55,365 nucleotides of DNA from a virus (lineage: Duplodnaviria; Caudoviricetes), in the IMG/VR virus record IMGVR_UViG_3300037722_000166, positions 1 to 55,365 of that record; one strand, given 5' to 3'. The notes below the pieces were generated by a model, which was given only the letters and a program-made list of their open reading frames with translations, was not told where the DNA came from and did not search any database. The translations under genes and the position numbers were made by a program. Positions within the stretch are counted from its first letter, which is position 1; each line of letters starts with the position of its first letter. Shown here in pieces: positions 8,497 through 55,356 of the stretch.

Positions 8497-10002
8497 ATGA
8501 ACGTACAATCTGAAGTCAATCCTCTATCACCCGCAGCAGTAGAGGTCTATTACAACGGCTGTAAGCTGACGCCCGCCCCGCTCATTGATTGGACGGTCGA
8601 GCCTCAATTTGATGATACTGGTGTTCGTACCTCTGATCTCAATAAGCTGACGCTTACTGGTACAGTGCTTGTTCTACCGTCTGGTAGTTACGAGCAGATG
8701 TATATCAAGCAGGAGGAGCTTCGTACTGCCTTCTCAGTGGACGATAAGGATTTCGTCATCCTGGCTGGTCCGGGCAACAAGACGTTGGCTGAAGGCACGA
8801 TCATTTGTTCTGGTCTCAAGCCCAAGGTCACTAACCTTACTATCCCTGCCGACACGCAATTCCAGCGTATCGACTACACGATTGAGCTAGAAGATCAAGT
8901 AACGGTCTCTGGTGTTAGTGGCGTTACGTCAAGCCTGAGTGACCAGTGGAGCTTTGCCGAAGACCCGGATAGCTGCACCGTCAATGTTACTCACCAAGTC
9001 AACGCTGAAGGTCCGGATGGAGAGTCTGACAAATTCGAGCAGGCCCTCCGTGCCGTCAAGGCTCGTCTTGGTATTGATAAGCTTCCTCTATCTATTCCAT
9101 GCTTCGTACAACCAAACGCCTCTGGCTTGTTTGGGTTTACGCATCCATCTGTAGCTGGCGGCGGACCAATCTTTGAGGTCTCTGTTCAGAGAGAAGAAGT
9201 CGCTGACATTGCCAATGGTACATATCAGGCCACTGAGATCTTCACGATTGTTAGCGGTGTACCATTCTATTTCAATCAGCGTACGGAGTCTTTCGAGGAG
9301 GACTCGAATGGTGTAGCCACCGTTACTATTGGTGGTACCGTTCAAGGACTAGGTAGAACGCTGTCTCCGGGTGAGCCCGATGGTGGTCCTGGCTTTGCTC
9401 GTGCGTGCTCTGGTTACATCAACGTCATTCGTCCCCAACTCAAGTGGGATGCCTCTGGCGTATACGAAAAGTACAAGGAGGGAAGTGCTGGTAGTGGTTT
9501 GGCCCTGTTCAACCCGACAGCCTTTACTGTCTCTCAGAATAAGTGTCGTGGCACGGTTGATTTCTCTGTCACCTACACGGATGATCCTAGTGCTAACCTG
9601 CCCAGCGGTATCACTAGTCGTACATGCAGCGTTTCCGTTGTAAATGGTACGCGACTACAAGTGAGTCACACGATTCCGTTCAGACGCCTTGGTAACATCG
9701 TCCAGGACATGAAGACGACTAACGAAGGTACAATGTCGATTCAGTGTCAGGCACAAGCTAAGAACACAGGCAATCCCACAAACGACACTAACCTTGCTAT
9801 TGCTTTTGTTCAGGACGAAATCAACAGACTGAAAAACGCTAATGCAAACCCGGCAAACTTTGTCAGTATCCGTGTCAACGGCCTGAACGAACAGTTTAGC
9901 GACACCGACCTCACGAGTAGCGTGACTCTTGATCTGGCATTCGTTGTTGACCTATCTACTGTTCCTGACATCAATGCCGATATCTCGCTGAGGACTCTAT
10001 AA
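8497..10002 (+). CDS. Putative distal tail / baseplate hub structural protein
   Basis: 501-aa beta-rich (Thr/Val/Ser) ORF directly after the tape measure. Positional inference. Confidence 0.5.
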   Translation: MNVQSEVNPLSPAAVEVYYNGCKLTPAPLIDWTVEPQFDDTGVRTSDLNKLTLTGTVLVLPSGSYEQMYIKQEELRTAFSVDDKDFVILAGPGNKTLAEGTIICSGLKPKVTNLTIPADTQFQRIDYTIELEDQVTVSGVSGVTSSLSDQWSFAEDPDSCTVNVTHQVNAEGPDGESDKFEQALRAVKARLGIDKLPLSIPCFVQPNASGLFGFTHPSVAGGGPIFEVSVQREEVADIANGTYQATEIFTIVSGVPFYFNQRTESFEEDSNGVATVTIGGTVQGLGRTLSPGEPDGGPGFARACSGYINVIRPQLKWDASGVYEKYKEGSAGSGLALFNPTAFTVSQNKCRGTVDFSVTYTDDPSANLPSGITSRTCSVSVVNGTRLQVSHTIPFRRLGNIVQDMKTTNEGTMSIQCQAQAKNTGNPTNDTNLAIAFVQDEINRLKNANANPANFVSIRVNGLNEQFSDTDLTSSVTLDLAFVVDLSTVPDINADISLRTL

Positions 10003-10562
10003 TGGTAAACTTTCCCGACGTAGAATGGATCCAGCAAGATCCCGGGACAGACCCGTCTGGTCAGCGTGATCAGAAGTCGGGAGCAGCGGGATTCTTGAGA
10101 GTGCTGAACACCGCCGCTGGTGGTGAACTCAACTATGGTCAGTTGAACACGACTGGCTCTGGTGCAATCACAGACACTCTATTGGCATACGCCAGGGTCG
10201 ATGACTTTGGTGATGCTAGTGGCGTATTCAATATGCGTATGTTCTTGACTAATGTGCTATCCTGGAACATTGGCACGTATCGCTTTTTGGAGCAGAAACA
10301 ACTACACTTCGTTCCGAACTTGACGCTGGACTCGTCGGCTCAAGACACTCCGACCATCGTTCCAACATCCCCAAACCTATCAGGTACTATCACAGAACCA
10401 GAGTGGCCCCTTGGTAAGCCTTGGATGAGTGGCCTATTGGACAATGATGTGAGCCAGTATGTGCATCTAGCTGTTGAGGTTGGTAATGATGTGCCGGTGG
10501 GTACATATGGTGGTGCGGGGGCGGGATCGTTTCGCTATAGGCTACTGTTCGATTTCTCCTGA
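10002..10562 (+). CDS. Putative virion structural protein (paralog of 11636..12289)
   Basis: 186 aa, beta-rich. C-terminal SQYVHLAVEV..VPVGTYG..GAGSFRYRLLFDF matches the paralog. Confidence 0.55.
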   Translation: MVNFPDVEWIQQDPGTDPSGQRDQKSGAAGFLRVLNTAAGGELNYGQLNTTGSGAITDTLLAYARVDDFGDASGVFNMRMFLTNVLSWNIGTYRFLEQKQLHFVPNLTLDSSAQDTPTIVPTSPNLSGTITEPEWPLGKPWMSGLLDNDVSQYVHLAVEVGNDVPVGTYGGAGAGSFRYRLLFDFS

Positions 10563-10588
10563 GAAAAAGCCACATAGCGGCCGATATC

Positions 10589-10599
10589 TAGTGTATTAT
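10589..10599 (+). promoter_or_regulatory. Putative phage late promoter TAGTGTATTAT
   Basis: One of four exact copies at gene boundaries. Lies just upstream of the GGAGG RBS of 10616. Confidence 0.6.
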
Positions 10600-10615
10600 T
10601 GGATGGAGGCAAATC

Positions 10616-11464: not shown

Positions 11465-11639
11465 CGACATCAAGCTTCGCAAGGTAGGTGATCCTGAGCC
11501 AGAACGTAACGAACTTCCTCGTGGAGTTCGTGCTCTGGTGATGGGTAATGAAGTGTACTTTGTACGTAGAGTGGCTGGGCGTTTCGTGCCCCTACCAGAA
11601 GAAGACCAAGCAAGGCTTAGAGAGAAGCATGTAAAATGA
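11451..11639 (+). CDS. Small hypothetical protein
   Basis: 62 aa, GAGG RBS, overlaps both neighbours. Confidence 0.5.
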   Translation: MQSHDDIKLRKVGDPEPERNELPRGVRALVMGNEVYFVRRVAGRFVPLPEEDQARLREKHVK

Positions 11640-12289
11640 GTGGTGGCTTCCCGGAAATCCGCGTGTTCTCTTGGGACACGGCTGAAATTGCGAGTCCTGT
11701 GGGATCACGGACATCGCCCGGGGGCTCGTTTGCATTCAGAAACATGGTCTCGTCCGGTTGCCAGACCGCCGACCCGAACAATCCCGGCACAACCTCAGGT
11801 CTTCTTATTTTTGAGCAGACTGAGTTTGATCTTACTGACCCGCCGCTTCCCTCTCACCTTGAGTCTAAGGTGGCTGCCATTACGATCAACGTAGCCAACA
11901 GCGGAACGGGTATGTCTGATATTCGTTTGTTCTTGGCTGACGATAGTGCATTCCAGGGCAGCTCTGATCAGGGGCTAGATAGAGCCTTCGTTCAATTTGC
12001 AGCCAGCGGTAGCTTCTGGGCATACAACGTAGAGATGCCCTCGGGAGCAGTAGCCCAACTTCCATTGACTGTTCCCGCAGTACCAAACGTATTCCGCCAA
12101 GATGGCGGCCACGCCCTCGTTGGACAGGACGACCTGAATTCATCAGAGTTTGTGTACTTGAATCTTGTACTGCCTCTAGGGATGCCGCTAGGAACCTTTG
12201 GGGCTTGTGGATCTGGACTGCTCAGATTCGGTTTAGTCTTTAACTACTGGTGTAACGACTTCATTCTGGAGTTCGGAGATGTCGGTTAG
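11636..12289 (+). CDS. Putative virion structural protein (paralog of 10002..10562)
   Basis: 217 aa, FPEI N-terminus and SEFVYLNLVL..MPLGTFG..GSGLLRFGLVFNY C-terminus. Confidence 0.55.
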   Translation: MSGGFPEIRVFSWDTAEIASPVGSRTSPGGSFAFRNMVSSGCQTADPNNPGTTSGLLIFEQTEFDLTDPPLPSHLESKVAAITINVANSGTGMSDIRLFLADDSAFQGSSDQGLDRAFVQFAASGSFWAYNVEMPSGAVAQLPLTVPAVPNVFRQDGGHALVGQDDLNSSEFVYLNLVLPLGMPLGTFGACGSGLLRFGLVFNYWCNDFILEFGDVG

Positions 12290-13193: not shown

Positions 13194-13650
13194 GCACGAG
13201 GGTAATTCTGGCCTTCTGGTGCTTACCACGCACTTTGGTAAAACAGTACAGGTGGCGTGCGAAAAACAAGACGACGAAACGTTTCGCCTAGGCGGCACGG
13301 CGATCAATGAAGTCGTTGTGTACGAGGGGTTGGTTCTAAGATTGCCAACACTACCTCCCTTTGCTCATTTTCGAGCCTTCCGTTCAGAAGAGGAATACTT
13401 CGAAGGCACTGGCACTATGTCTCACGAGGAGTGGGATGCTGCTGATCTGCATTGCTGGATTACTGAGTATTACGACCTAGATATGGAAGGTAAGAAGCCT
13501 GGTTGGTTCATTAGCAAGAATCCTATTTGCGACGCTCATTTTTTATTCGTTAACTTAGACGTGATAGATGGCGGTTGTAACACTATGAAAAGGTATCGTG
13601 TTTCGCCATTGACGGGTGAGTATAAAGTAATGGAGACCATAAATGGCTGA
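13174..13650 (+). CDS. Hypothetical protein
   Basis: 158 aa, GAGG RBS, overlaps both neighbours. Confidence 0.55.
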   Translation: MVTASFEHEGNSGLLVLTTHFGKTVQVACEKQDDETFRLGGTAINEVVVYEGLVLRLPTLPPFAHFRAFRSEEEYFEGTGTMSHEEWDAADLHCWITEYYDLDMEGKKPGWFISKNPICDAHFLFVNLDVIDGGCNTMKRYRVSPLTGEYKVMETING

Positions 13651-16600
13651 TCTCATCAATGATGGTTCATTAGTTGGATTTTGGCCCCTATTAGAACCGA
13701 GTGGTTCCCTACTTTTTAAGAACTATTCGCCGGCATACGCTAAATATCCTAGTGGTATTTCTTTTGACTTTCAGGTCGCTACTGCCGATGCTCTTCTTAA
13801 AGAAGAACAGAATTCATTTTGGCCTGGAACCAATAGGGTTTTTAATAGTGAGTCTGGTGTTTTTGTTACTGGTTATAGTGTTGGTGGACACTGGAAGCTT
13901 AATACGGATTCTTCTCCATTTTCTAAGTATTTAGTTCTTGGTGGTGGTGGGCGACAACAAGCTGAACAGTGTTTATCGTTGTCTATAGCCGAAAGTGGCT
14001 TTACAGTTGGATGTTGGGTATATCCGAACAGTGATGGCTACCTTGCCGCACACAGCAGTGCTTTTAACTTAAGTGCTGGTAATACTTGGAGTGTCGCATA
14101 TGCTAGAGCCCATACATTACTTGGGCAGTTTTCAGCCTTTATAAATAATGGTGGATGGTATCTAGGAGTATCTGGCAGTTTATCTCGTGGTGCTCAACAT
14201 GACTTTGACATAAACGCTGGTAATACGTTGGGTGCGTTTGTTTCTATGACAAAGGCTAATAACTCGGTGGCCGATCTTTTACTTGAGACGCCAATTGAAA
14301 GCCATCGTTATACTCACCTGACCGTTAGCTATAGATATCTTGGTGGTAGCAATAATCAATTAGTCTTATATAAAGATGGTAGAGTGGTTGCTAGTGGAAC
14401 TACAGATGATAATTTAACATTATCTAATGCGTCGCTTATTAGTGACGCTAATCATCGTTCATTGGCTATAGGTGCGTGTGATCCAGAGGCGGTAACGTCT
14501 GCGGCCAATCACTATGATCGCACTAGTGGTTGGAATAATTTGGTCTCTGGTGTATACCATTTTCGTCGCGTTTTACACGAAGGAGAGGTTCTTGAACTAC
14601 ATGAACGTGGTGGACTTATTGCGGAAGAATCTAATACATCTCCATTTCAAGAAGTACTTTTAACAGACCCCAGTATTGTTGCTTATTATCCAATTTTTGA
14701 TCAATTGTTTACTGATGTTAGCCGTAATCATTCTCCGCTAATTAGTAATTTTGACATGGGGTTTGATGGCAATGGTACATTGCCCTTAACTGGTCCATTT
14801 GGTGGTGGTACTATTTATAATGATGGCGTGAATGATTTTATTGTTCATGCTGCAAGTAGTGGTACCTGCTATGATTTATTAAGCAACGGAAGTTGGACAA
14901 TAGGATTGAATGTATCACTAGACAATTCTGTTGATAGAGATGGTCATATAGTTTTTTCTTGGGGATCAGTAACTTCTCTTACGGTCGGCACTAGTTTACC
15001 CGCATCAGTGCCACCAACTCTTAACACTGCTGGAATTTGTTGTACCACGAGTGGTGTAACTAATCAACAGCGTCACGTTATTGAGATATATTCTCTTGGC
15101 GATGTTACTGATACAGACAGTATACTCGTTTTTGATATCAATGGCGTAAAAGAGTATTATGATGGTGCTGTTTGTCATTTAGCACTTGCATACGATGATA
15201 GTACTAAAGGTATAGCTGCTTATCTTAATGGTATACAACAGGGGAGTGGTACGTTAGTCAATTCCCTTAGTGAACAATTGTTGACTATTACTGGTATGGG
15301 ATATCCGTTATTATTTGGTAACGGTATTATTGACGATATTTCTGATAATAACGGGCGTGGTCTTCATGCTGCCGGTGGTCAAGATGCTTCTATTGGACAA
15401 ATGTTTTTAGCTAAAAGAGCATTGTTACCAGCAGAAATTCGAGCTATTGCTGTTAGTGGTATTAATTTTACGCAAGTTTATCATTCGCATCATGATCCAA
15501 GATTAGTAGGATATTGGCCAGCTACTATTTTTCAAATAGATGATGTTATTGTACCAGATAAAGCTCGTTGTTGGAGTCAAACACCCGGCAACTTGACTCG
15601 TGGAGATTCTTTTGCGAAGCAGGATTACTGGTATGGTCGTGATCGTACTGACAATAGTACCAGTATTTGGAATAATGATGGTACCGCAAGATATAATCAA
15701 TTTGGTAATCGAACACTGCCTCCCGAATTAGATTCTTATGGTAATCTTGGTATAACTTCTGGATCTTTTATTGTACGTGGTGGCACTCCCGGTCTTGCAA
15801 ATGTTGTAGACGCGGTTAACGTATCGTCTTCAATTGGCAATTTTTCTTCTCGATATAAAGCGAATTTCGAACAAAATGATTTAGTTCCACAAAGTATTCT
15901 TGGTGAATTTATATTATCATATGAAGTTACTCCTAGCGGCAATATTCCCGCTACCGTTATTGGTATGAATTCATCTGCTGGTACTCCAGCACATAATTCA
16001 CTATTGCATGTTTATGGTACAGATGCTTTTAATGATACGCGATCATACCTTACTACACTTGAGGCTGGCTCTGGTTCAGGAGTAAGTATTGTTTGGTTGG
16101 GCGAAAATAATACTCCATTGGTATCTGGAAATATACCATATGGTATTCCTAGTCGTGTGTTATTACATGGTAAATTTGATTTACCACATTATCGCAATGG
16201 TTTTGCGGGTGGAACTACACCATATTCTGTTAGTTTGTGGATTGGTGGAGAATTGGTGCATAGACGCACAATGACATCAGCAACAGCACAGCTTTGGAGC
16301 AATGCTGCACCAGTATCATTAACGGATGTATTGTCGTTTGGTGGTGCTGTTGGTAACACTACTGCCTATGCTACTCAATATACAGCATTAGATAGTGGAC
16401 TAGGAGAAATTTATCTTCGTGAAATTTTTCTAATGCGTGGTATCTTCTTTGAAGATGAAATCAGGACTTTAGCAACTAGCGGTATTCAAACTAGAGAAAT
16501 TAGTGGATTCTCTAATGAACAATCAACATCGCAGGTTACCATTGCCGATCCTAATTTGGTATGTTATTATCGATTTAATGGATTTGATGGCGGCGGCTCT

Positions 16601-18616
16601 GGTACTACGGATTTAAGCTTAAATAACAATCATTTATTTGGAGCACAACAAAGTATCGTCGAAAATGGATTAGGCACACTTAGTGAGGGTGCATTTTTCT
16701 TAAGAGCATTTCCTGGTCCGTTTGAAAATTCTAGTTTGGGTGTTCAGTGTAGTGGATTTTCTTATTATGATCGTAGTCCTAATACGACTTCTTCGCCACA
16801 CAATATGCCAACCTTTATGGCGTCTGGGGCAAGATTCAATTCTCCAAATAATAGTTTTTCTGTAGGATTTTTCTTCATAAAGAAGAATGAAACCAATCCA
16901 GCCTCTCATTTCAATGCTATTGTTTCATATGGATTAACCCCTGGTAGTACCGTTATTGATACTGGAACAAGCACTGGATATGGTTGGATGATTGGCCAAG
17001 ACGATACTCAAAACATGAAAATGGTGATATCGCTCGATGGCAATATGTATCTTAATAATGCTGCCAACGCTGCTCAGGGTGGACAACTAGTTGTTGGATC
17101 ATTTGGTGAGGGCGGATCAATATACGAAGATTTTAAGCAATGGGAGCAATATCGTGCTGGTCATTATCGTTTACCACGTCTTGATGCTTGGAGTCATTAT
17201 TGTTGGGTGTATGATGCTGTGGCTAGAGTGGTTAGTCATTATGTTGATGGAGATCTTGTTGATTTCAAATACATGAAAGACGGTAAGGATCCTCAGGTTC
17301 CAGACGAATTTTCTAGATACCTAACGTTTCTTCAACATACGTCTACGGCTCCGTGGACGAATAGCCCTACGGTTTGCCACGAACACGAGGGTGCATTAAC
17401 TGATTTTTTCTATTTTGACGATGCACTAACGCAAGAAGAGATTCGTTATATAGCTTTTAATGGCATTGATGATGTTATGGGTACACCAATAAGTGGCATA
17501 GTTGGTGGCTTCATTCATGGCCAAGACACTGGCTCCGGTCATTTTGGTGGCTACTCTCGTGGTCTAGATACTGGCTCTGGTCTTATTGGTGGCTTTATGC
17601 CCGGTGGTCTAGAAGGAAGCGGTGTATTTGGAGGATACGTTTCTGGCGTTGTCTTTGGTAATGGCACGATTGGTGGCTGGATCCGTGGTCAGGATGATAT
17701 GTCCGGAATCCTCGGTGGCTACATGCGAGGCGTTGACGTTGGTTCTGGATCTGTTGCTGGCTACATTGCTGGTCAGGATGTAGGCTCTGGTCACTTCGGC
17801 GGCCTTATTTTTGCTGCCGAGATTCCGAGTGGTCTATTCGGCGGCTATATGAGTGCTGCTGATATTGCCAGTGGTGTACTTGGCGGATTTATGCTGGGTG
17901 GTCTCCAGGGTAACTTCGCGTTTGATGCTGGCTTCACTGTTCAAGTGCTGGCGGCTGAAGACTTCGATGCTCAGCTTGAGATCGCTAAGACTGTCTCGTC
18001 TGACTTCGACGCCAAGGTCATCATCTTCCAGGATGAGATTCCGCCCCTTGTTGACATCATTGTGCCGGATGCATCTGTTAGTGGTCTTGCTCCTCCGTTC
18101 AACCAATACTTCGTAGCGAAAGCATCTGGTCAACAAGGAAAGACTATCACGTCAACCAAGTGGACCTTCGGTGATCTCACGCCCAGCGTGACGGTTGCTG
18201 AGAGTGGTGCTGGTTGCTACCCGACTCAACATTTGTACGCATCGAGCGGTTTCTTCATCGCTAAGTTTGAAGCTACCGACTCTGATGGCCTACATGCTTC
18301 TGCTACACGCATCATCAATGCTGCTTCTGGTATTGATCCCGTACTCATTAGCTTGTCTGGTGTTCCGCGTTCTGGTAACGCCGAACTGATTGTAGATTTC
18401 ACTACCGACGTAAACATTCTGCCGCCTGGAGTGAGTATCGTAAGTCAGCTTCTCAACTACGACGATGGACAAACTACAATCTCGTTCAATCCGACACACA
18501 ACTATACTCAGCCGGGCACGTACAAGCCGATTTGGTGCGTGCGAGATTCACGAGGTATCATTTGGTGCGATAGCTTGGAGGCAGGCAATGACTTCCTCGA
18601 AAGCGGAGGGGCGTAA
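13643..18616 (+). CDS. Large tail fibre/adhesin: 4 LamG/concanavalin-like domains, Gly-rich 14-aa repeat, 2 PKD domains
   Basis: Four units begin LVGFWPL / IVAYYPI / LVGYWPA / LVCYYRF and end RRVLHEGEV / KRALLPAEI / RGIFFEDEI / DDALTQEEI (LamG signature). C-terminal KWTFGD...HLYASSG and NYDDG...PTHNYTQPGTY are PKD-like. Confidence 0.75.
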   Translation: MADLINDGSLVGFWPLLEPSGSLLFKNYSPAYAKYPSGISFDFQVATADALLKEEQNSFWPGTNRVFNSESGVFVTGYSVGGHWKLNTDSSPFSKYLVLGGGGRQQAEQCLSLSIAESGFTVGCWVYPNSDGYLAAHSSAFNLSAGNTWSVAYARAHTLLGQFSAFINNGGWYLGVSGSLSRGAQHDFDINAGNTLGAFVSMTKANNSVADLLLETPIESHRYTHLTVSYRYLGGSNNQLVLYKDGRVVASGTTDDNLTLSNASLISDANHRSLAIGACDPEAVTSAANHYDRTSGWNNLVSGVYHFRRVLHEGEVLELHERGGLIAEESNTSPFQEVLLTDPSIVAYYPIFDQLFTDVSRNHSPLISNFDMGFDGNGTLPLTGPFGGGTIYNDGVNDFIVHAASSGTCYDLLSNGSWTIGLNVSLDNSVDRDGHIVFSWGSVTSLTVGTSLPASVPPTLNTAGICCTTSGVTNQQRHVIEIYSLGDVTDTDSILVFDINGVKEYYDGAVCHLALAYDDSTKGIAAYLNGIQQGSGTLVNSLSEQLLTITGMGYPLLFGNGIIDDISDNNGRGLHAAGGQDASIGQMFLAKRALLPAEIRAIAVSGINFTQVYHSHHDPRLVGYWPATIFQIDDVIVPDKARCWSQTPGNLTRGDSFAKQDYWYGRDRTDNSTSIWNNDGTARYNQFGNRTLPPELDSYGNLGITSGSFIVRGGTPGLANVVDAVNVSSSIGNFSSRYKANFEQNDLVPQSILGEFILSYEVTPSGNIPATVIGMNSSAGTPAHNSLLHVYGTDAFNDTRSYLTTLEAGSGSGVSIVWLGENNTPLVSGNIPYGIPSRVLLHGKFDLPHYRNGFAGGTTPYSVSLWIGGELVHRRTMTSATAQLWSNAAPVSLTDVLSFGGAVGNTTAYATQYTALDSGLGEIYLREIFLMRGIFFEDEIRTLATSGIQTREISGFSNEQSTSQVTIADPNLVCYYRFNGFDGGGSGTTDLSLNNNHLFGAQQSIVENGLGTLSEGAFFLRAFPGPFENSSLGVQCSGFSYYDRSPNTTSSPHNMPTFMASGARFNSPNNSFSVGFFFIKKNETNPASHFNAIVSYGLTPGSTVIDTGTSTGYGWMIGQDDTQNMKMVISLDGNMYLNNAANAAQGGQLVVGSFGEGGSIYEDFKQWEQYRAGHYRLPRLDAWSHYCWVYDAVARVVSHYVDGDLVDFKYMKDGKDPQVPDEFSRYLTFLQHTSTAPWTNSPTVCHEHEGALTDFFYFDDALTQEEIRYIAFNGIDDVMGTPISGIVGGFIHGQDTGSGHFGGYSRGLDTGSGLIGGFMPGGLEGSGVFGGYVSGVVFGNGTIGGWIRGQDDMSGILGGYMRGVDVGSGSVAGYIAGQDVGSGHFGGLIFAAEIPSGLFGGYMSAADIASGVLGGFMLGGLQGNFAFDAGFTVQVLAAEDFDAQLEIAKTVSSDFDAKVIIFQDEIPPLVDIIVPDASVSGLAPPFNQYFVAKASGQQGKTITSTKWTFGDLTPSVTVAESGAGCYPTQHLYASSGFFIAKFEATDSDGLHASATRIINAASGIDPVLISLSGVPRSGNAELIVDFTTDVNILPPGVSIVSQLLNYDDGQTTISFNPTHNYTQPGTYKPIWCVRDSRGIIWCDSLEAGNDFLESGGA
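17489..17911 (+). repeat. Ten tandem 14-aa (42-nt) repeats, consensus xSGxhGGaxxGxDx
   Basis: ISGIVGGFIHGQDT / GSGHFGGYSRGLDT / GSGLIGGFMPGGLE / GSGVFGGYVSGVVF / GNGTIGGWIRGQDD / MSGILGGYMRGVDV / GSGSVAGYIAGQDV / GSGHFGGLIFAAEI / PSGLFGGYMSAADI / ASGVLGGFMLGGLQ. Confidence 0.9.
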
Positions 18617-45110: not shown

Positions 45111-45963
45111 GATCTCCTACCTTGTATCGACCTACAATTCGGGTCACTTTCTGGACGCTCATCTAGCTGACTTGCTAGAGAAGCAGACCGATCCGGATTT
45201 CGAGATCGTTGTAGTCAACCCCAACTCCCCAAGTACGGATGGGTTGATCGCTCAAAAGTGGGCAGCAGTAGATGATCGCGTCAAGTATATCTACTGGCCC
45301 ACTCGCGAGCCCTACGGTGCTTCATGGCTAAGGGCGTGGCGGAATGCGACGGGCGAGTTCGTGATGAATTCTAACACCGACGACTTCCACGATCCCAGGA
45401 CTACCGAGCTAGTCTATCAGCATATGAAGATTGCCACAAGTCCGATGCACGCAGGCTCTAAGATTGCCTTCTGCTACGGCGGCATGACCGTTATCAATGA
45501 GCAGCGTCAGATCCAAGGAAGAGGGCTAAAACCAAGGTTCGATTTTGAGCTAATGTCCCGCGAGTGCTGGGCTGGACCGCAGGTTGCGTGGCGGAATGAC
45601 AAGGAATTCATAAGGGATTTGGACTGGAACCTGATGGATGAGCGAGGCGAGACACACAGGTCCGCATTCGACTACTGGCTTTGGCTTTACTTCATGAGTA
45701 AGGGCTATCACGGCCATGTCATCGAAGAGTTCCTTACGGACTATACACAACGTCCCGATTCTATTGAGAATAGCAACAAGTGGGCTAATAATTGGGAGAC
45801 TTACGCTTCCATTTCTGAGTTTTTCGGTCATAATTTCGATGGCAACTTGAAGCACGCGAGAGAATTCCGTGACTTCGGCAACTTACCGTCTAAGGACGAG
45901 TGGGTTGCAACGATGCAGGCAGGTAAGAAATGGCGAACATCAAAGCATGGTGGCACTGGTTAG
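45103..45963 (+). CDS. GT2-family glycosyltransferase
   Basis: KISYLVSTYN, FEIVVVN..STDG, ATGEFVMNSNTDD, DYWLW. Confidence 0.85.
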   Translation: MSKISYLVSTYNSGHFLDAHLADLLEKQTDPDFEIVVVNPNSPSTDGLIAQKWAAVDDRVKYIYWPTREPYGASWLRAWRNATGEFVMNSNTDDFHDPRTTELVYQHMKIATSPMHAGSKIAFCYGGMTVINEQRQIQGRGLKPRFDFELMSRECWAGPQVAWRNDKEFIRDLDWNLMDERGETHRSAFDYWLWLYFMSKGYHGHVIEEFLTDYTQRPDSIENSNKWANNWETYASISEFFGHNFDGNLKHAREFRDFGNLPSKDEWVATMQAGKKWRTSKHGGTG

Positions 45964-46358
45964 TGGCGAGGAGCTTGCTACGCGAGCTTGAGTCACAGAA
46001 AGATGCTACCGCATCCAACGCTCTCGAATGGGCTGCCGCCGATAGTCGTGCGGACGAGCTACGGATTGAAGTGAATGAACTTCGTAGGAAGGCCGCGATG
46101 TTGGGTAGTGAGCTAAAGTACGCTCAAGACTCTCGTACAGCCGACGCCGCAGCGGTAGCACAGGTCATCAACGAACGCATGGGGGCAGACAAAAATCTCC
46201 CGGGCAAGCTTGATCTACTGCGTCAACAACTCAAGCAGGAGTTGGCGTACATTGCTTACCTAGAAGAAAATCAGACCGCAGGCACTACTTTATTCAACGA
46301 CCTTCCTCTGGAAACCAGAAAGCAGTATTTCGAGCGAGTTGAAGGAAACGTACGATGA
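45930..46358 (+). CDS. Hypothetical coiled-coil protein
   Basis: 142-aa helical ORF overlapping both neighbours. Confidence 0.55.
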   Translation: MANIKAWWHWLVARSLLRELESQKDATASNALEWAAADSRADELRIEVNELRRKAAMLGSELKYAQDSRTADAAAVAQVINERMGADKNLPGKLDLLRQQLKQELAYIAYLEENQTAGTTLFNDLPLETRKQYFERVEGNVR

Positions 46359-46633
46359 AGATCATTCCTAAGCCCTGGGGCCGTGAACGAATCATTGAGG
46401 CAAACGACAAGTACGCCTTCAAGATTCTGGAAGTAGACCCCAGACAACGACTCAGCCTACAGTACCATGAGCAGAAGCGTGAAACCATGTACTGTATCTA
46501 CGGTTGTGGCACACTGTTCCTGAGTAACGACCAAGGCACCCGCGAAATGACTCTACTGCCTGGGCGTTTGGAAGACGACTACAGCCGTGGCACCGAAAAA
46601 GACTACCTGGACCCCTTTGATAATGGCAATTAG
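46355..46633 (+). pseudogene. Cupin (type II mannose-6-phosphate isomerase C-terminal-like) with an internal in-frame deletion
   Basis: KPWG, RLSLQYH..KRET and RLEDDY.R are present. The second cupin motif (..HR..) normally between LxPG and RLEDDY is absent. Confidence 0.65.
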
Positions 46634-47714
46634 AGTTCTACACTACCTCCGCAACCTTGGGTTGGGCGGCACGGAGAAGACCTGTCAACTGTTTTTCGAG
46701 CATGCTGGCAGAGACTTCGAGGTTATCCTAGTACACGAGGCTACCGGAGACAAGACCCGCCTGGAGGAATTCCAGAAGGGTGCCAAGGTTAGTATGGGCA
46801 AGATCATTGAGATTGACTCGTACTTTGGTTATCCACAGAGCACGCCCGATCCTCGTCCACTACAAGAGATCATTGATTTGGTCAAACCTGACATTCTGCA
46901 TGTCTACCGTAGCGGCTACGCAGAGTTCCCGGTGGGAGAGGTCGATGTCCCGCACGTTGTAGAAACCAATGTCTTCGGCCATCTTGATCCTAACCCCAAG
47001 ATTGACCGCACACTCTTTATGAGCAAATGGCTACACGACTATGCCCTCCGTGGCGTGCGGGTGCCGCCGCGACTCGCGAACAGATTTGATTTTGTCAACA
47101 ACCCCGTTGAGGCCCCGTACACAGACCGCCCCCTTTCCGGTATTTCAAGCAGAATGACTTGGCTAGGACGTTGTGGTCGTCCGGACAATGGCATCTACAA
47201 TTCCGTTAGTGTAGAAGCCGCTCGTCTACTACGTATGCAGGGCTACGAAGTTGGATTTCTGGTGGTGGCTCCCCCTAGTAACATGGTAAGAGACCTTGCG
47301 GACAATGAGATTCCATTCAAGGTGATCGAAGAAACTACCAATCCCTTGATTCTGAGTCAGTTTTACAATACCGTAGACATCTACGCTCATGCCAGGGCAG
47401 ATGGAGAAACGTACGGCGTAAATATCGCTGAGGCCATGATGCATGGTAAGCCAGTAGTTACTCATATTGCTACACCATCCGTACCAGGAATGGGGGTGTT
47501 TCAATCGCAAACAGAATTGGTAGATAATGGTTTAACAGGATTTGTTTGTTCTAACGATCCAGTAAATTATATGTACTTCTTAAAGCTTTTGATTGATGAT
47601 TCTAAACTTAGAAATGAGATGGGAATGGCGGCTTACAACAAGGCAATGAAAGAGTGTCATGTAGATGTGTGCCAGGAGAAGCTTGAAAAGATTTATAGGG
47701 AAGTAGTAAAATGA
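46623..47714 (+). CDS. GT4-family glycosyltransferase
   Basis: RVLHYL..LGLGGTE, AHARADGETYGVNIAEAMMHGKPVV. Start placed at ATG 46623. Confidence 0.88.
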   Translation: MAIRVLHYLRNLGLGGTEKTCQLFFEHAGRDFEVILVHEATGDKTRLEEFQKGAKVSMGKIIEIDSYFGYPQSTPDPRPLQEIIDLVKPDILHVYRSGYAEFPVGEVDVPHVVETNVFGHLDPNPKIDRTLFMSKWLHDYALRGVRVPPRLANRFDFVNNPVEAPYTDRPLSGISSRMTWLGRCGRPDNGIYNSVSVEAARLLRMQGYEVGFLVVAPPSNMVRDLADNEIPFKVIEETTNPLILSQFYNTVDIYAHARADGETYGVNIAEAMMHGKPVVTHIATPSVPGMGVFQSQTELVDNGLTGFVCSNDPVNYMYFLKLLIDDSKLRNEMGMAAYNKAMKECHVDVCQEKLEKIYREVVK

Positions 47715-48264: not shown

Positions 48265-48306
48265 TTTTTTGGGTGGTAGCTTGGAGTGATTTTGGAGACG
48301 GATACA

Positions 48307-49461
48307 ATGTCTAAAATTCGCGTCGTTCATCATTCGAAGACTATTGGGTACTCTGGAAGCGACCGTACAGCCCAATTGTTTGCAAAATATCTCATCAACA
48401 GTGATCGTTTCGAGCCTTTTTTAGTATACCGCGAAGGCGATAAGAATAACCAGAGACTAGACGCCGCGAGACAATGGTTAGGCTCTGACCGCGTGATACC
48501 CTATCGGTGGGAGCCGGGCAGGAAGGGGCGTCAATCACCGTATCTACCTGAGCATGATAATCTCCATGAAGTACTCATGGGAATTGATCCAGATATTGTT
48601 CATTTGCACCGAAGCGGTTATGTCGAATGGCCCGGCTTCCGATACATGGCTCCCAGAGCAAAGTGGGTAGAGACCAACATCTTTGGAGAAGCAGACCGTA
48701 CGCCCGAGCGTCAGTTTGATCTGCATATCTATATTTCTGACTACATTCGCCAGCGTGCTCTAGAAAATGGTTCTCCCGATGGTCCCGTGCTGTATAATCC
48801 TATTGAGCAGCCCGTGTTGGATATGACTCCCGAGAATAAGGAACTTTGCCGTGAGGCTCTGCTCGCTCAGTTTAAGATTCCGCATAACGCAATTTTAATA
48901 GGACGAGTGGGCCGAGCAGACAACTTTGACCCTATCTCGCTTCGTGCATTTGCCGAAGTGGAGAAGGCTTGTCCTGAGGCTTGGTACATCGTCGTTAACC
49001 CTTGTAATAGATGGCAGGAAGAGTCGACTCGTCTTGGTATTCAGAACATTCGTTTTACGGGGCCTATCGTGGATGACTACAAGCTATCTAACTTCTATCG
49101 TGGCCTGGATATCTACGCTCACGCTCGCCATGACGGGGAGTGCTGTCCGTGTAACATTCAGGAGGCTATGATGCATCGGCTTCCCGTTGTCTCGCATGAG
49201 AGTGCTATCTACAATGGGCAATCGGAGATTGTTGGCAATGCTGGCTTTGTTGTTCCCCTTGGGGATCACGTTGCATATCGTGACATTCTTATTCAATTAA
49301 TTGAAAACCACGAGTTCGTTAATGAGAATGAAGATGGGTTAGTGCGTCTACGCGATCACTTTGGTCTTGAGGCTCGTCGTCGTTCCATGCGATATTTTGA
49401 AGCAAGTTGCATTACGACTCAATTAGAAAGTATGTATGATTGGGTGCTTGAAAAACAATGA
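48307..49461 (+). CDS. GT4-family glycosyltransferase (paralog of 46623..47714)
   Basis: DIVHLHRSGY, VETNIFG, AHARHDGECCPCNIQEAMMHRLPVV. Confidence 0.88.
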   Translation: MSKIRVVHHSKTIGYSGSDRTAQLFAKYLINSDRFEPFLVYREGDKNNQRLDAARQWLGSDRVIPYRWEPGRKGRQSPYLPEHDNLHEVLMGIDPDIVHLHRSGYVEWPGFRYMAPRAKWVETNIFGEADRTPERQFDLHIYISDYIRQRALENGSPDGPVLYNPIEQPVLDMTPENKELCREALLAQFKIPHNAILIGRVGRADNFDPISLRAFAEVEKACPEAWYIVVNPCNRWQEESTRLGIQNIRFTGPIVDDYKLSNFYRGLDIYAHARHDGECCPCNIQEAMMHRLPVVSHESAIYNGQSEIVGNAGFVVPLGDHVAYRDILIQLIENHEFVNENEDGLVRLRDHFGLEARRRSMRYFEASCITTQLESMYDWVLEKQ

Positions 49462-50183
49462 CTAAAGTTATCTCATTTTCGTTATGGGGTCAGGATTTAA
49501 AGTACTGCATCGGTGCTATTCGTAATGCCGATCTTGCTCAACAATTTTACCCCGACTGGCAATGCGTTTTTCAGCTTGATGCGATTGTCCCCAATATCAT
49601 TGAAGACAAATTAAATGAGTTTGAAAATACCATTGTTATTCGTCGTATAGATCCAAAAACTAATGGACTTACCAAGGGAGATTGGCGAGCGATGATGTGG
49701 CGTTTTGAGCTTATTTGTGAACCGTCGGTGGAAGTAATGCTTGTTCGTGACTGCGACTCTCGACTGTCGGCACGCGAAGCTGCCGCAGTCGAGGAGTGGA
49801 TGGTAAGCGATAAACAGTTTCATTCAATGCGAGATCATGTTTTTCATAGTGTACCAATATTGGGTGGTCTTTGGGGCATGAAGCAAGGGAATATATCGCG
49901 TAGTGCTTTCAAGGCATTACTTGACAGTTGGCCCACGGAAGATCGTCTTCAAACAGATCAAGAATTTCTCGCTAAAGAAGTTTGGGTGAGGTATAATCAT
50001 CATATTTTATGTCATGATGATGGATTTTTTACTCATTTATGGGGCGGACAATCGTTTCCTAGTCCGCGAAGCGGCCTAGAGTTTGTTGGTCAAGTATATG
50101 ACGAACATGATGTAGCTACTAAATATTATGAAGAAGAGTTATCAAAATGGCTTTGTGGACAAAAAAAGAAGACGACTTATTGA
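49458..50183 (+). CDS. Putative GT-A-like glycosyltransferase (SFSLWG...RDxDSR type)
   Basis: ISFSLWG, MMWRF, LVRDCDSR (DxD), MRDH..H..PILGGLWG, DQEFL. Sits in the GT cluster. Confidence 0.55.
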   Translation: MTKVISFSLWGQDLKYCIGAIRNADLAQQFYPDWQCVFQLDAIVPNIIEDKLNEFENTIVIRRIDPKTNGLTKGDWRAMMWRFELICEPSVEVMLVRDCDSRLSAREAAAVEEWMVSDKQFHSMRDHVFHSVPILGGLWGMKQGNISRSAFKALLDSWPTEDRLQTDQEFLAKEVWVRYNHHILCHDDGFFTHLWGGQSFPSPRSGLEFVGQVYDEHDVATKYYEEELSKWLCGQKKKTTY

Positions 50184-51791: not shown

Positions 51792-52571
51792 ATGAAAATT
51801 CTTTTTAGAAAAGACCAGGATAATTATGACGAGTTACCGGTAGCACAGCAATACTCAGATGTAATCACTCAGCGTGTAGAGTGTTGCAATGGCGATACTA
51901 TTGTTGGTCGTTATTCTGTTTTACCTTTTTATAGGGAACTTGAAAAAGACATTGAGTTCTTTGGTGGAAAATTAATTAATTCTTATTCTCAGCATTCTTG
52001 GATTGCTAATTTTAATTATTATGATGAGTTATATAACTTGACATTTCCAACCTGGAATGATTATGATTTTCATTTGGCTCCCGAAGGAGCTTATATTCTA
52101 AAAGGTAAAACAAACTCTAAGAAAAATCAGTGGTCAACTCATATGTTCGCAGCCACAAAACGAGAGGCTATCGATGTGGCGTCAAGATTAATCAATGATG
52201 AATTCATTGGTCCTCAAGGTCTTCTTTATAGGAAATATATGCCACTTAAAACATTTAGTCATGGCCTGAATGGTCTTCCTTACACAGACGAGTGGCGATT
52301 CTTCTTTTTGGGTACTGACCTATTGAGCTATGGATATTATTGGTGCTGTGAAGAGAATGCTGACGAGAGGACGATTGAACCAGAAGGAATCGTCTTTGCT
52401 CGCACGGTAGCGGCAGTAGCTTCCAAGTATGTTAATTTCTTTGTTGTTGATGTTGGCAAGACAGAAAGTGGCGATTGGATTATGATTGAATTAAACGATG
52501 GTCAAATGTCTGGCTTATCAATGAACGATCCACATAAACTTTATGTAAACTTGGTAAAATGCGTGTCTTAG
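51792..52571 (+). CDS. ATP-grasp domain protein (R2K-like)
   Basis: YILKG, EWRFF, FFVVDVG...WIMIELNDGQMSGL. Confidence 0.72.
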   Translation: MKILFRKDQDNYDELPVAQQYSDVITQRVECCNGDTIVGRYSVLPFYRELEKDIEFFGGKLINSYSQHSWIANFNYYDELYNLTFPTWNDYDFHLAPEGAYILKGKTNSKKNQWSTHMFAATKREAIDVASRLINDEFIGPQGLLYRKYMPLKTFSHGLNGLPYTDEWRFFFLGTDLLSYGYYWCCEENADERTIEPEGIVFARTVAAVASKYVNFFVVDVGKTESGDWIMIELNDGQMSGLSMNDPHKLYVNLVKCVS

Positions 52572-53449
52572 TTTCATATCGTGGTGCTCCCAGAATACGC
52601 GGTTGGGAAACTGGTGCTATGATTGCTAATGCATTCAGGAGTCTTGGGCACGACGTTTTCGAGTATGGAAACATATATGAAACAAAAGAACGTTTACCTA
52701 ATGCCCCCGACAACCTAGACGATATTGATCTTTGTGTTTATTGTGAAATGAACGATGCAGATCCACAATATACTGAACTTCGTTCCGTAAGAGCTCGAAA
52801 AATGGTGTGTTGTTTATATGATACATCCTATTATGCCGACCGCTGCAAGCATCTTGTTGATTACTTCCGCTTCGACCATCTATTTATAGCGAATCCACTT
52901 ACCATTCAAGAATACAAGACGTGGGGATACGATCATGTCTCTTACCTACCTTATGCATGCGACCGCGACCTACATGGACGTTCGCTGGAACATCCCAAGA
53001 CCCGTGACGTGGTGCTCGTTGGTTCTATCCGCGACGACAGGCGGACTCTTGCTTATCAACTCTCTAACTTAGGAGTTGATCTAGAGCTTATTGGCGATGT
53101 CTTCCGAGAAGACTACATTGATGCCCTAGCGTCCGCAAAGGTCGTGATCAATCAGAATCCTACTGACGGTAGAGGTCTATTGAATATGCGGTACTGGGAA
53201 ACTCCAGCGGCGGGCTCTTTTGTTCTAACGGAAGCGGCTGATTATTCCGAACAACCGATTAACTTGTGCAACGGATACCCGTATAATGGTACTGAGGAAA
53301 TCGCGGGCTTCTGCCGTGCCATCTTAGATAACCCGCAGCGTTTGGCGGAAGCAACAGCGGCCACACAGCATCACGTTTTCAAGTATCACACCTACACCAA
53401 CCGCTGCAACGACATCTTGGGGACGCTGTTCCCACACCATACGTCATGA
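52559..53449 (+). CDS. CgeB-like GT-B glycosyltransferase
   Basis: YLPYACD, DVVLVGS, AKVVINQ..LNMRYWE, HTYTNR. Confidence 0.82.
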   Translation: MRVLVSYRGAPRIRGWETGAMIANAFRSLGHDVFEYGNIYETKERLPNAPDNLDDIDLCVYCEMNDADPQYTELRSVRARKMVCCLYDTSYYADRCKHLVDYFRFDHLFIANPLTIQEYKTWGYDHVSYLPYACDRDLHGRSLEHPKTRDVVLVGSIRDDRRTLAYQLSNLGVDLELIGDVFREDYIDALASAKVVINQNPTDGRGLLNMRYWETPAAGSFVLTEAADYSEQPINLCNGYPYNGTEEIAGFCRAILDNPQRLAEATAATQHHVFKYHTYTNRCNDILGTLFPHHTS

Positions 53450-54111
53450 AAGAAACAGATACCATCAGTGTCCTGATCTGTGTCCACAGCCAGGACATTG
53501 AGCACGACCGACTATTCCAGGAATCCCTGGAGTCGTTGGTCCGTCAGACATATGAGGATTTCGAAGTCGTCGTCGTCCTAGATGAGTGCTGGAACAACAC
53601 CCGCAGCATCTTGGAAAGCTATCGCTCTGTACTAGACATTCGTTTTTTCGAGCGTCCTCGCAAACAGGGACTTGCAGCGGCCAAGAACTTTGGTCTCTCA
53701 AAATGTAAGACGGATTGGGTCACATATCTCGATGCTGATGATCGTTATATGGACTGCAAGATTGGTGTTCAGCGTCAGTGGATGCTAGATCATCCGGATG
53801 TTGATTTTTGTGGCACGCAGGCGTGGGATATTCTTGATGGATATGTAGTGCCTAATTGTTTCCCTATCATGTCTTATTTGACACACGAGGAGATTGTTGG
53901 TGCGTTGTCCAATGAGAACGTTCTATGTCATGGTAGCATGATGATTCGTAAACTAGCTATTGATACTCTTCGTGGTTACAGTACAGATAAAGTGCTACTT
54001 GGTCGTGAGGATTGGGAGCTATGGGTGCGAGCCGCCAACGCTGGTTTTCGTTTCGGTAAGGTGCCTGAACGTCTCTATCTCTACACACTAGGTACAAGCG
54101 TACCTCGATAA
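53446..54111 (+). CDS. GT2-family glycosyltransferase
   Basis: ISVLI, LESLVRQTY.DFEVVVV, GLAAAKN.GL, YLDADD, EDWELWVR. Confidence 0.9.
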   Translation: MKETDTISVLICVHSQDIEHDRLFQESLESLVRQTYEDFEVVVVLDECWNNTRSILESYRSVLDIRFFERPRKQGLAAAKNFGLSKCKTDWVTYLDADDRYMDCKIGVQRQWMLDHPDVDFCGTQAWDILDGYVVPNCFPIMSYLTHEEIVGALSNENVLCHGSMMIRKLAIDTLRGYSTDKVLLGREDWELWVRAANAGFRFGKVPERLYLYTLGTSVPR

Positions 54112-54112
54112 T

Positions 54113-54385
54113 ATGTGCAAAGTAGTACATTGCAAGAAAGAGCCGTTTGATGTTTACATTGGTAGACCTTCAAAGTGGGGTAATCCATTTTCGCATAAGA
54201 GCGGTACCAAGGCTCAATTTAAAGTAGCTACTCGTGACGAAGCGGTTGCACAATATCGCGAATGGATCACGCAACAACCACATTTACTTAACGCACTTTA
54301 TGAATTGCGTGGTAAAACACTTGGATGTTGGTGTGCTCCTCAATCGTGTCATGGTGATGTTTTAATGGAACTAGCAAACTCATGA
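54113..54385 (+). CDS. DUF4326-like protein
   Basis: VYIGRPSKWGNPF...LRGKTLGCWCAPQSCHGDVL. Confidence 0.85.
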   Translation: MCKVVHCKKEPFDVYIGRPSKWGNPFSHKSGTKAQFKVATRDEAVAQYREWITQQPHLLNALYELRGKTLGCWCAPQSCHGDVLMELANS

Positions 54386-55356
54386 AAATTCTCTACGTAG
54401 GACTCCTGTATAATTACGGTAAACCCGAAGAGGGGTTTTCGTATGAGCACTTCAATCTAGAGGCAGGTTTCAAAGACTGTGCTGACCGTGGCATGTTCGA
54501 AGTAGACTACCTCTATCCTGATGAGTGCAAAGATCTTGCTAGGACTGCTTCCGAACTAGTGATCGACGGTGACTACGACGCCATTTTTCATGTGGCATTC
54601 AATGAGTCATTGGACCTTCCGGAAGGTGCAGCCAAACTAGCACTACGAAAAGACATGCCCGTGATCCAGTGGGACTGCGATACGTCGTGGCGTTTTCAAA
54701 GCTGGATTGCTCCCCGCAAGGACAGGGTGAGTCACTTCGTTACAACCCACTCGCGTACAGTGGAATGGTATCAGAAGTTTGGTATGAACGTGATTCGTTC
54801 TCAATGGGGTGGCTCCCCGTACTATCATCCTCAAGAGGTTGACGCGAAGTACGACGTAACGTTTATTGGACAAAAGCATGGCCGCATGCCTGATGGACGC
54901 TTCCTGCGTTCTGAGATCATCGACAACATCATGGCCGCTGGTATCAACATTGATCTTTTCGGGAACTATTGGGACGGATACGAAAACTGGCATGGCTATC
55001 AAACCAATTTTCATGATATGATTAGGGCGTTCACGGAGAGTAAGATCTGTTTGAACCTCTCTAATCCCTGGCATCACGGCAGCATGCCTCAAATCAAGGG
55101 GCGACACTTTGAGATACCGCAAACTGGTAGGCTACAAGTTTGTACGCCCGCCGACGATCTCGCGTCTTATTTTGAAGACGGCAAAGAGATCGTGATTGCT
55201 AAGGACCAAGGTGAACTCCTGGCCAAGCTACGGTATTACCTAGAGAACGATGAAGAACGCGAACAGATTGCTGTTGCTGGTCGTACTCGTATGCTTGCAG
55301 AACACCAGTGGCATCATCGTTTCGAACACATTTTCAAAGAGGTAGGGATCCTGTGA
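54382..55356 (+). CDS. CgeB-like GT-B glycosyltransferase
   Basis: YDVTFIGQ, SKICLNLS, IKGRHFEI, FEDGKEIV, HQWHHR. Confidence 0.85.
   Translation: MKILYVGLLYNYGKPEEGFSYEHFNLEAGFKDCADRGMFEVDYLYPDECKDLARTASELVIDGDYDAIFHVAFNESLDLPEGAAKLALRKDMPVIQWDCDTSWRFQSWIAPRKDRVSHFVTTHSRTVEWYQKFGMNVIRSQWGGSPYYHPQEVDAKYDVTFIGQKHGRMPDGRFLRSEIIDNIMAAGINIDLFGNYWDGYENWHGYQTNFHDMIRAFTESKICLNLSNPWHHGSMPQIKGRHFEIPQTGRLQVCTPADDLASYFEDGKEIVIAKDQGELLAKLRYYLENDEEREQIAVAGRTRMLAEHQWHHRFEHIFKEVGIL

Follow-up and report, generated by a model that had tools for sequence, protein, structure and literature searches.

The dipeptide Ser-Gly (SG) is strongly over-represented in the tail-tip and fibre proteins of an uncultured siphophage and its relatives, and its serine is conserved far beyond the other serines of the same proteins. 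Judged from these sequence comparisons, SG is a genuine functional motif in the tail tip of this clade, a minimal Ser-specific motif on the distal tail complex comprising Dit-like, small tip, large tip, fibre and receptor-binding proteins. Our leading reading, which we put forward tentatively, is that the SG serines are acceptors for cytoplasmic O-glycosylation; a cluster of glycosyltransferase (GT) genes lies at the end of the same DNA. The stretch analysed, referred to as the window, is the complete IMG/VR record IMGVR_UViG_3300037722_000166 with a length of 55,365 bases, in which 49 open reading frames (ORFs) were analysed.

All credible genes of the window lie on the plus strand, which holds for its features given by coordinates below unless marked otherwise. 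The window begins with four unannotated ORFs and the gene for a tape measure protein of 1742 amino acids (aa), followed by seven tail-tip/fibre ORFs with free-standing homing endonucleases interspersed among them. Downstream of the tail genes are a replication block (RecA, a DnaB-like protein, primase, a PD-(D/E)XK nuclease, ClpP and DnaE), a sigma factor and then the GT cluster, which extends up to the contig end. A search of IMG/VR gave 38 related loci, the largest of their contigs reaching 183 kb, and three of the related contigs (183,100, 161,114 and 147,927 bases) have direct terminal repeats, so that the window is a fragment of an uncultured siphophage genome of roughly 150-183 kb. G005 (183,100 bases, 262 ORFs; L039-L048) is a complete relative; genes in the relatives were called simply as longest ORFs. 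A nucleotide search with the tail module among isolate phages gave no match, nor did a tblastn search of 50,697 phage records with the Dit-like protein and two of its remote homologues, and the matches of DnaE to isolate phages were distant only (<35% identity).

Excess and conservation of Ser-Gly in the distal tail proteins

Expected dipeptide counts were computed from each protein's own composition. Pooled over the seven tail-tip/fibre proteins (4632 aa), SG was found 96 times versus 46.6 times expected, with a z of 7.2 that tops all dipeptides, the runner-up being EI with a z of 3.3, and none of 2000 within-protein shuffles reached 96 SG (mean 46.7, standard deviation 6.3). The dipeptides GS (49 versus 46.6), NG (35 versus 30.3) and DG (32 versus 32.6) occur about as often as expected, TG is depleted (observed/expected ratio, O/E, 0.78), and in the remaining 42 ORFs of the window (13,272 aa) SG was counted 40 times versus 49.9 expected (ratio 0.8). 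A preliminary description of this DNA had counted SG by hand and had claimed that it exceeds both composition and GS. Its counts proved exact, for the fibre within one (41 versus about 40), and so did the contrasts it drew with the tape measure (3 SG and 9 GS in 1742 aa) and with DnaE (2 SG in 1100 aa). The excess over composition and over GS is borne out by the figures above, and O/E ratios of SG and GS computed for all proteins of the window restrict the excess to the distal tail proteins.

The fibre contains a tandem repeat of about 10 x 14 aa (aa 1280-1425, 17480..17917), read from the translation as xGxDxGSGxxGGYx with one SG in each unit, which Pfam matched to no known repeat family. With this repeat and its 10 SG taken out, the pooled count was 86 SG versus 42.0 expected (z 6.8). 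The motif is encoded by both Ser codon families, which makes SG a protein-level feature. Residues flanking SG are small at position -1 and hydrophobic at +2/+3, giving the context [G/A/P/V]-S-G-[V/L/I]-[L/F/I], and among acidic flanking residues D at -3 alone shows a mild rise (1.7-fold).

The first gene past the tape measure (8497..10002) encodes the Dit-like distal tail protein with 10 SG in 501 aa (O/E 2.91, orthologues 3.00-3.05), in which the Ser of SG is conserved to 95% versus 52% for other Ser. It is followed by a tail-tip protein at 10002..10562 with 6 SG in 186 aa (O/E 4.09, orthologues 3.17; conservation of Ser 0.81 versus 0.48), which had no match in Pfam and PHROG, and by a second tail-tip protein at 11636..12289 with 7 SG in 217 aa (O/E 2.76, orthologues 2.58; Ser 0.80 versus 0.58, p 0.08). 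The fibre (13643..18616), in which Pfam recognizes Laminin_G_3 and PKD domains, carries 41 SG in 1657 aa (O/E 2.03, orthologues 2.15; Ser 0.83 versus 0.34). The large tail-tip protein at 18620..21994 has 16 SG in 1124 aa (O/E 1.78, orthologues 2.04; Ser 0.91 versus 0.48) and is the best conserved of the seven, with no match in Pfam, PHROG or the PDB sequences. At 21994..24168 a fast-evolving tail protein with 9 SG in 724 aa shows an O/E of 1.24 in the window and of 2.16 over 29 orthologues, whose median identity is 28%; at a mean identity of 32% its Ser of SG is conserved to 0.84 versus 0.23 for other Ser, and from its position and variability it is probably the receptor-binding protein. The last of the seven, a beta-sandwich protein at 24894..25565 with 7 SG in 223 aa (O/E 2.60), is beta-rich in its AlphaFold2 (AF2) model, where no clear fold match was found, and five of its seven SG are nearly invariant across 31 aligned sequences. 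One more ORF within the tail module, 13174-13650 (158 aa), which was absent from the hand counts of the preliminary description, contains 1 SG, and its orthologues have a pooled O/E of 0.48.

Conservation was measured as identity to the residue of the window, in alignments of the seven families that each comprised 22-32 distinct sequences. The Ser of SG is conserved to 86% (n=96) versus 38% for other Ser (n=315; Mann-Whitney U test, p 9e-30), the Gly of SG to 92% versus 66% for other Gly, and the SG serine thereby exceeds even Trp (72%) and Gly overall (71%). The residues preceding Gly in NG, DG, TG and AG are conserved to 0.38-0.47 and Ser after Gly to 0.59. The excess for Ser of SG has the same direction in all seven families, with p<1e-3 in five and p values of 0.03 and 0.08 in the two smallest, and conservation of at least 80% is reached at 77 of 96 SG serines versus 49 of 315 other serines. 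At 43 of these 77 conserved sites TCN and AGY codons interchange among the orthologues. When all 273 distinct SG sites are considered, the share with SG in at least 80% of the orthologues is 28%, versus 0-5% for 21 other dipeptides. The conservation forms an island of two residues, as the flanks are at 0.48-0.62 with a background of 0.54. The same comparison gave no effect in tail families of lambda-like phages (SG serine 0.75 versus 0.80 for other Ser, 27 SG), in T5-like tail families (0.72 versus 0.67, 24 SG) and in the clade's own non-tail (replication) proteins (0.30 versus 0.51, 12 SG). SG is thus under strong, Ser-specific purifying selection, as would be expected of a sequon.

The bias is not restricted to the window. 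In all 38 related loci the SG O/E of the tail proteins is raised, ranging from 1.86 to 2.92 per locus versus 0.42 to 1.59 for non-tail proteins, and the pooled values for the orthologues of the seven proteins lie between 2.0 and 3.2 versus 0.4 to 1.4 for replication proteins. It sets in abruptly at the first gene past the tape measure, where the orthologue O/E changes from 0.26-1.14 (four upstream ORFs and tape measure) to 3.05 for the Dit-like protein. In G005 the seven tail proteins contain 93 SG versus 39.4 expected, and the remaining 250 ORFs 198 versus 190.8; five further SG-rich ORFs of this genome hold 40 SG versus 16.6 expected, one of them (599 aa) with a C-terminal BclA_C-like domain that scores below the Pfam cut-off, two unannotated and two that PHROG weakly assigns to families of head-decoration or virion structural proteins. 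Segments of the tail orthologues that cannot be aligned to the window are likewise enriched (108 SG versus 62.0 expected).

The genes in front of the Dit-like protein provide the contrast. The tape measure (3265..8493, PF10145) has an SG O/E of 0.32 (orthologues 0.64), and the four ORFs preceding it (116..3265) contain 1, 0, 0 and 2 SG, with orthologue O/E values of 0.78, 0.26, 0.50 and 1.14. These four had no family match in Pfam and PHROG and are, by position only, candidates for tube and chaperone proteins.

The glycosyltransferase module

Nine ORFs of the window contain a GT domain according to Pfam, eight of them above the gathering score. Four are of the GT4 type: 38406..41288 (PF00534, 48.7 bits; with an intein and a C-terminal DUF4214), 41503..42762 (PF00534, 38.1 bits; phrog_2170), the GT4-like 46587..47714 (PF00534, 25.0 bits with a cut-off of 26.4, which its orthologue in G005 passes with 39.5-41 bits) and 48286..49461 (PF13692, 47.4 bits). 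Three belong to GT2, namely 43399..44421 (PF00535, 37.2 bits), 45103..45963 (PF00535, 59.5 bits) and 53446..54111 (PF00535, 79.8 bits; generic GT-A matches in the PDB). The remaining two are CgeB-like enzymes of the Glyco_trans_1_2 family, 52559..53449 (PF13524, 50.3 bits) and 54382..55356 (PF13524, 101.7 bits); the contig ends 9 bases after the latter, inside the module. Other genes of the cluster encode a cupin resembling the C-terminal region of mannose-6-phosphate isomerase (46355..46633; PF01050, 32.5 bits, and a weak TIGR01479 match), a GMP-reductase/IMPDH-like enzyme (50730-51770), an ATP-grasp protein of the R2K clade (51792..52571; PF14243, 75.4 bits), a DUF4326 protein (54113-54385) and a 241-aa protein with no match in Pfam and without assigned family (49458..50183). 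A homologue of this last protein (30% identity, E 7e-23) lies on the minus strand of a very distant phage contig, L194, at 17641-18411, about 3 kb from tail-tip genes.

The intein of the first GT4 gene, recognized by Hint_2, Intein_splicing and LAGLIDADG_3 (roughly aa 120-480), is not present in the orthologue of G005, which has 601 aa. Its insertion suggests that this glycosyltransferase gene is important to the phage.

None of the ORFs from 38406 to 55356 contains a hydrophobic segment, the highest Kyte-Doolittle mean over 19 residues being 1.45. Where the preliminary description spoke of about ten GTs devoid of transmembrane segments, the lack of such segments stands and the number is nine. 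It had also reported no flippase or polymerase; among the 49 ORFs of the window Pfam indeed matched no family of flippases or transporters, polymerases, ligases or membrane-bound initiating transferases, and the same functions were not found in G005, where 181 of the 262 ORFs were scanned (at least 110 aa; nine boundary-spanning ORFs left out). Genes of a Wzx/Wzy- or ABC-dependent pathway for surface polysaccharide were thus not found in either scan, and host components may be used.

In G005 twelve ORFs have GT domains, ten in the syntenic region and two just before the terminase gene. Its module also includes a class I methyltransferase, a TylF-type O-methyltransferase, a two-domain nucleotidyltransferase and the genes fcl (GDP-fucose synthase) and gmd (GDP-mannose 4,6-dehydratase); the loci of its GDP-fucose, methyltransferase and SG-rich BclA_C-like genes include 141697-147336 and 161558-163357. 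GT4 genes were found in all 20 related virus records examined and GT2 genes in all five tested. The GT module is thus a core, soluble glycan-building system, which fits the sequential glycosylation of a cytoplasmic acceptor without in itself telling which one.

DNA base glycosylation (hypermodification) employs a base hydroxymethylase or dioxygenase alongside one to three GTs of its own. No hydroxymethylase or dioxygenase family of this kind was matched in the window and no hydroxymethylase was seen in G005, the nucleotide genes of which comprise dCMP deaminase, ThyX, dNMP kinase and MazG. Twelve GTs together with fucose synthesis and a TylF-type O-methyltransferase would probably exceed the needs of DNA base glycosylation systems.

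Possible functions of the Ser-Gly motif

If the SG serines are acceptors, the phage's own set of GTs would be the obvious agent. Soluble phage enzymes of the GT4, GT2 and CgeB-like types would place the first sugar directly on the Ser hydroxyl of SG sites in turns and loops and lengthen the glycan from there, while the tail-tip proteins fold and assemble in the cytoplasm. The donors would be nucleotide sugars, with GDP-fucose made by the relatives themselves via gmd and fcl, a TylF-type O-methyltransferase would trim the glycan, and no lipid carrier, flippase or polymerase would be needed. Plausible roles of the glycan are to shield or stabilise the adsorption apparatus or to mediate contact with the host. 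A Ser-directed modification explains why only Ser is tolerated in this clade, why conservation is confined to two residues, why the motif is spread over seven proteins and non-homologous segments and why the signature is missing from lambda-like and T5-like tails. In its full form the proposal is that an uncultured, widespread clade of 150-183-kb siphophages hyper-O-glycosylates about 100 SG sites of its adsorption apparatus by means of about a dozen cytoplasmic GTs, using self-made GDP-fucose-type and methylated sugars, and to this we give rather guarded credence. If true, a sequon-directed glycoprotein system would thereby be described in a phage for the first time, and it could be read directly from the sequence.

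Among the alternatives, the most probable is that SG is a structural or assembly motif, either a Ser-capped turn with a left-handed Gly or a tight contact between subunits, with the GTs serving an unrelated purpose. We consider this possible, if doubtful. When 1.84 billion representatives were searched with a profile of the Dit-like protein, 1007 remote homologues emerged; in 125 listed far ones (about 25% identity) the pooled SG O/E is 1.76. The homologues range from 0 to 17 SG per protein, from SG-poor ones such as P0093 (1 SG, 185-kb contig), P0086 (2 SG, 124 kb) and P0149 (3 SG, 117 kb) upwards. Many of them carry SG at the same sites: the nine positions richest in SG are all SG sites of the window, and at two of these Thr-Gly comes second. 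As Gly is kept at the same positions in the remote homologues, these are turn positions. Of 15 displayed SG-poor homologues, 12 retain the Gly of site 253 and 11 that of site 370, yet the Ser is retained by only three and none, respectively, with D, N, T, A, K or P in its place. The fold of the Dit-like protein hence does not need the Ser; its SG positions are turns that require Gly, while the insistence on Ser is a property of the lineage. Further features are difficult to reconcile with a purely structural role, since the generic turn formers NG and DG are neither enriched nor conserved, the flanks of SG are at background, the SG serines of lambda-like and T5-like tails show no extra conservation, and the motif extends across seven proteins of different architecture and into non-homologous segments.

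Two AF2 models were inspected in this respect, one for the 8497 family (predicted local distance difference test, pLDDT, 70.3), which shows repeating strand-strand-helix units, and one for the 24894 family (pLDDT 60.3). Thirteen of the 17 SG sites on these models are predicted as coil, and several of these occupy hairpin turns or precede a strand by 1-3 residues, as a structural role would have it, and 7 of the 17 fall into segments with pLDDT <50, which make up 20% of the residues. At pLDDT values of 60 and 70 the placement is weak evidence either way. Foldseek and VIA-align gave weak tube/Dit/Hcp-like matches for the 8497 family (best E 2.5e-3) or generic beta-sandwich matches (Z up to 5.8), sequence searches of the PDB with three tail proteins and two GTs gave no match, and matches in the ESM Atlas were to viral clusters without names only.

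As for the GTs, the structural explanation would have them remodel polysaccharide of the host envelope via host lipid carriers, or build a glycoconjugate of another kind. That membrane segments are likewise missing from the peripheral GTs of O-antigen pathways counts in favour of this role. On the other side stands the lack of an initiating phosphoglycosyl transferase, flippase, polymerase and ligase among the scanned ORFs of the window and G005. A comparable assembly of many GTs with gmd and fcl is known from the lytic cyanophage S-SCSM1, where the cluster was interpreted as genes for the modification of the host cell wall, which speaks for the host-envelope role and weighs against virion glycosylation; the accessible portion of that report mentions no virion acceptor motif (PMC9602691).

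A different function of the serines, as target of another modification (introduced by an enzyme of the host or by the cluster's own ATP-grasp R2K ligase) or as part of a docking motif for a chaperone, is unlikely in our view. The selection signature tells that Ser before Gly matters and does not identify the group attached, if there is one, and the ATP-grasp R2K, DUF4326 and unassigned 49458-50183 proteins do lie among the GTs, the last having its homologue next to the tail genes of a distant phage. However, Pfam found no kinase, acyltransferase or other Ser-directed family in the window, and at the site corresponding to the ATP-grasp gene G005 carries an HNH gene, so that the ATP-grasp gene is not obviously part of the core, whereas the GTs are universal. 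Finally, it is exceedingly improbable that the excess is an artefact of composition, repeats, a DNA motif or selective counting: the proteins were indeed chosen after SG had been noticed and 10 of the 41 SG of the fibre lie in one repeat, but the bias survives shuffling and removal of the repeat, uses both interchanging Ser codon families and recurs in the tail genes, not in the other genes, of all 38 related loci.

Several observations weigh against glycosylation of the SG serines and have to be set beside those in its favour. Distal tail proteins of lambda have an SG O/E of about 1.47 and a mild bias of SG over GS, and the values for T5 tails (about 1.26), T4 long fibres (0.94) and Che8 minor tail proteins (about 1.26), like that for lambda obtained from hand-made sums, indicate that part of the excess is generic; the excess in this clade is roughly 1.5-2 times the generic tail level. 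The depletion of TG leaves Thr no part as an alternative acceptor, so that a strictly Ser-specific enzyme would be needed. The remote homologues of the Dit-like protein, whose genomic context is not known, carry SG at the same positions, so that these sites are ancient and could be structural. Four of the 17 modelled sites lie in strands (two) or in one long predicted helix (two). SG is scarce in the ORFs that precede the tape measure gene and are tube candidates by position, and the candidate major capsid protein of G005, assigned from one weak PHROG match, has no SG. The glycan coat covering the tail that had been envisaged in the preliminary description consequently has to be narrowed to the adsorption apparatus. 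Its idea of SG as a sequon has fared better, in that conservation is Ser-specific and independent of the fold; that the GTs act on the SG serines, and what the glycan would do, we infer.

Co-occurrence of the two features cannot discriminate, as all 20 related records examined have both GT4 genes and the SG bias. A relative without GTs was sought via the remote homologues of the Dit-like protein, and none was obtained. For the single remote homologues P0139, P0127 and P0093 no locus was found among viral contigs, and for P0093, placed on a 185-kb contig by the cluster table, none among metagenome contigs either. A search with the alignment A2 returned known contigs only. A profile was also run against 400 genomes from the class to which G006, a metagenome-assembled genome (MAG) described below, belongs, and G006 alone matched. 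The homologue P0102 led to the contig L194, which has a GC content of 32% and belongs to a very distant phage; here the Dit-like protein has an SG O/E of about 1.9 and a 1033-aa tail protein of about 1.6, and no GT was found within 10 kb.

Glycosylated virions have been described for a few actinobacteriophages, in which the modification affects recognition by antibodies, and to our knowledge little is understood of how the targets of phage glycosylation are chosen. The mycobacteriophages Che8, Corndog and Myrna (Freeman et al. 2023) glycosylate their virions with their own GTs, which, according to two citing papers, presumably act in the cytoplasm on structural proteins of the same phage, as we propose here (PMC12619734, PMC12363180). 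In contrast to the dispersed dipeptide described here, which is found on tail-tip and fibre proteins only and together with nine to twelve GT genes, the modified mycobacteriophage proteins are given there as capsid and tail-tube subunits with modification at the C-termini, a further point against our reading (PMC12619734, PMC12363180). The present clade is known from metagenomic contigs alone, and the minor tail proteins of Che8 show no SG excess comparable to it. The bacterial autotransporter heptosyltransferases TibC/AAH hyperglycosylate the beta-rich adhesins TibA/AIDA-I in the cytoplasm on Ser only and not on Thr; of the mapped sites, Ser-313 lies in N-S-G-G and the other in S-A (PMC4358343). 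Unlike the virion proteins considered here, that acceptor is a secreted bacterial adhesin, and no heptosyltransferase family was matched by Pfam and NCBIfam among the 49 ORFs of the window.

Similarities also exist to eukaryotic systems. The attachment site of proteoglycan xylosyltransferase is Ser-Gly with acidic flanks, in which Ser cannot be replaced by Thr. The minimal dipeptide and the exclusion of Thr are the same in the phage proteins, but the flanks are small or hydrophobic, and no related GT family was matched. Chloroviruses attach N-linked glycans to their major capsid protein at atypical sites, and giant viruses bring their own glycosylation machinery. Common to these and the present case are the virus's own soluble GTs, here with gmd and fcl in the relatives, and the independence from host membrane machinery, which for the phage is a proposal; the chloroviruses differ in being viruses of eukaryotes, whereas the phage infects a bacterium and has a Ser-based motif on its tail. 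In the library searched, we found nothing relevant on glycosylated phage tail fibres or on a Ser-Gly sequon in phages.

The SG serines combine a clean signature of selection with variable surroundings, a location on the host-recognition apparatus and dispensability for the fold. Should SG mark glycan attachment, glycosylated phage proteins would become predictable from sequence and it could be tested which targets a large viral set of GTs acts on, and a sugar layer on receptor-binding proteins would bear on host range, environmental stability and tail engineering. Should the motif be structural instead, it remains an unexplained clade-specific rule of tail-tip architecture.

Mobile elements and further genes

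G005 also encodes NAMPT, aspartate carbamoyltransferase, peptide deformylase, PhoH, ThyX and ribonucleotide reductase (RNR). The GMP-reductase-like protein of the window has a 52%-identical counterpart on a 157,945-base contig of 'MAG: Hydrogenophaga sp.' (G006). Contig C4 of G006 carries a copy of the 1124-aa tail protein with 87% identity, a Dit-like gene and four GT4 matches (L165-L167). The copy of the 1124-aa protein places phage DNA of the clade in this MAG, and C4, the closest relative found, is probably a phage contig that was binned with it; this offers at most a weak hint at Hydrogenophaga as host.

ARAGORN predicted one tRNA-Arg (anticodon gcg) on the minus strand at 37267-37359, overlapping the start of ORF 37261-37770; the call is doubtful, because an Rfam scan of the window gave nothing at gathering thresholds. 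Seven free-standing homing-endonuclease ORFs of the LAGLIDADG+AP2, HNH, HNH_3+HTH and LAGLIDADG types are located between the tail, replication and GT genes (10616-11464, 12645-13193, 24448-24894, 25587-25988, 28580-29041, 42759-43409 and 50147-50713), and their placement differs from that in G005, which carries a separate set. Unlike these mobile neighbours, the 137-aa ORF at 28170-28583, whose PHROG matches are HNH/homing endonucleases, recurs in every one of the 38 related loci as an orthologue of about 61% identity.

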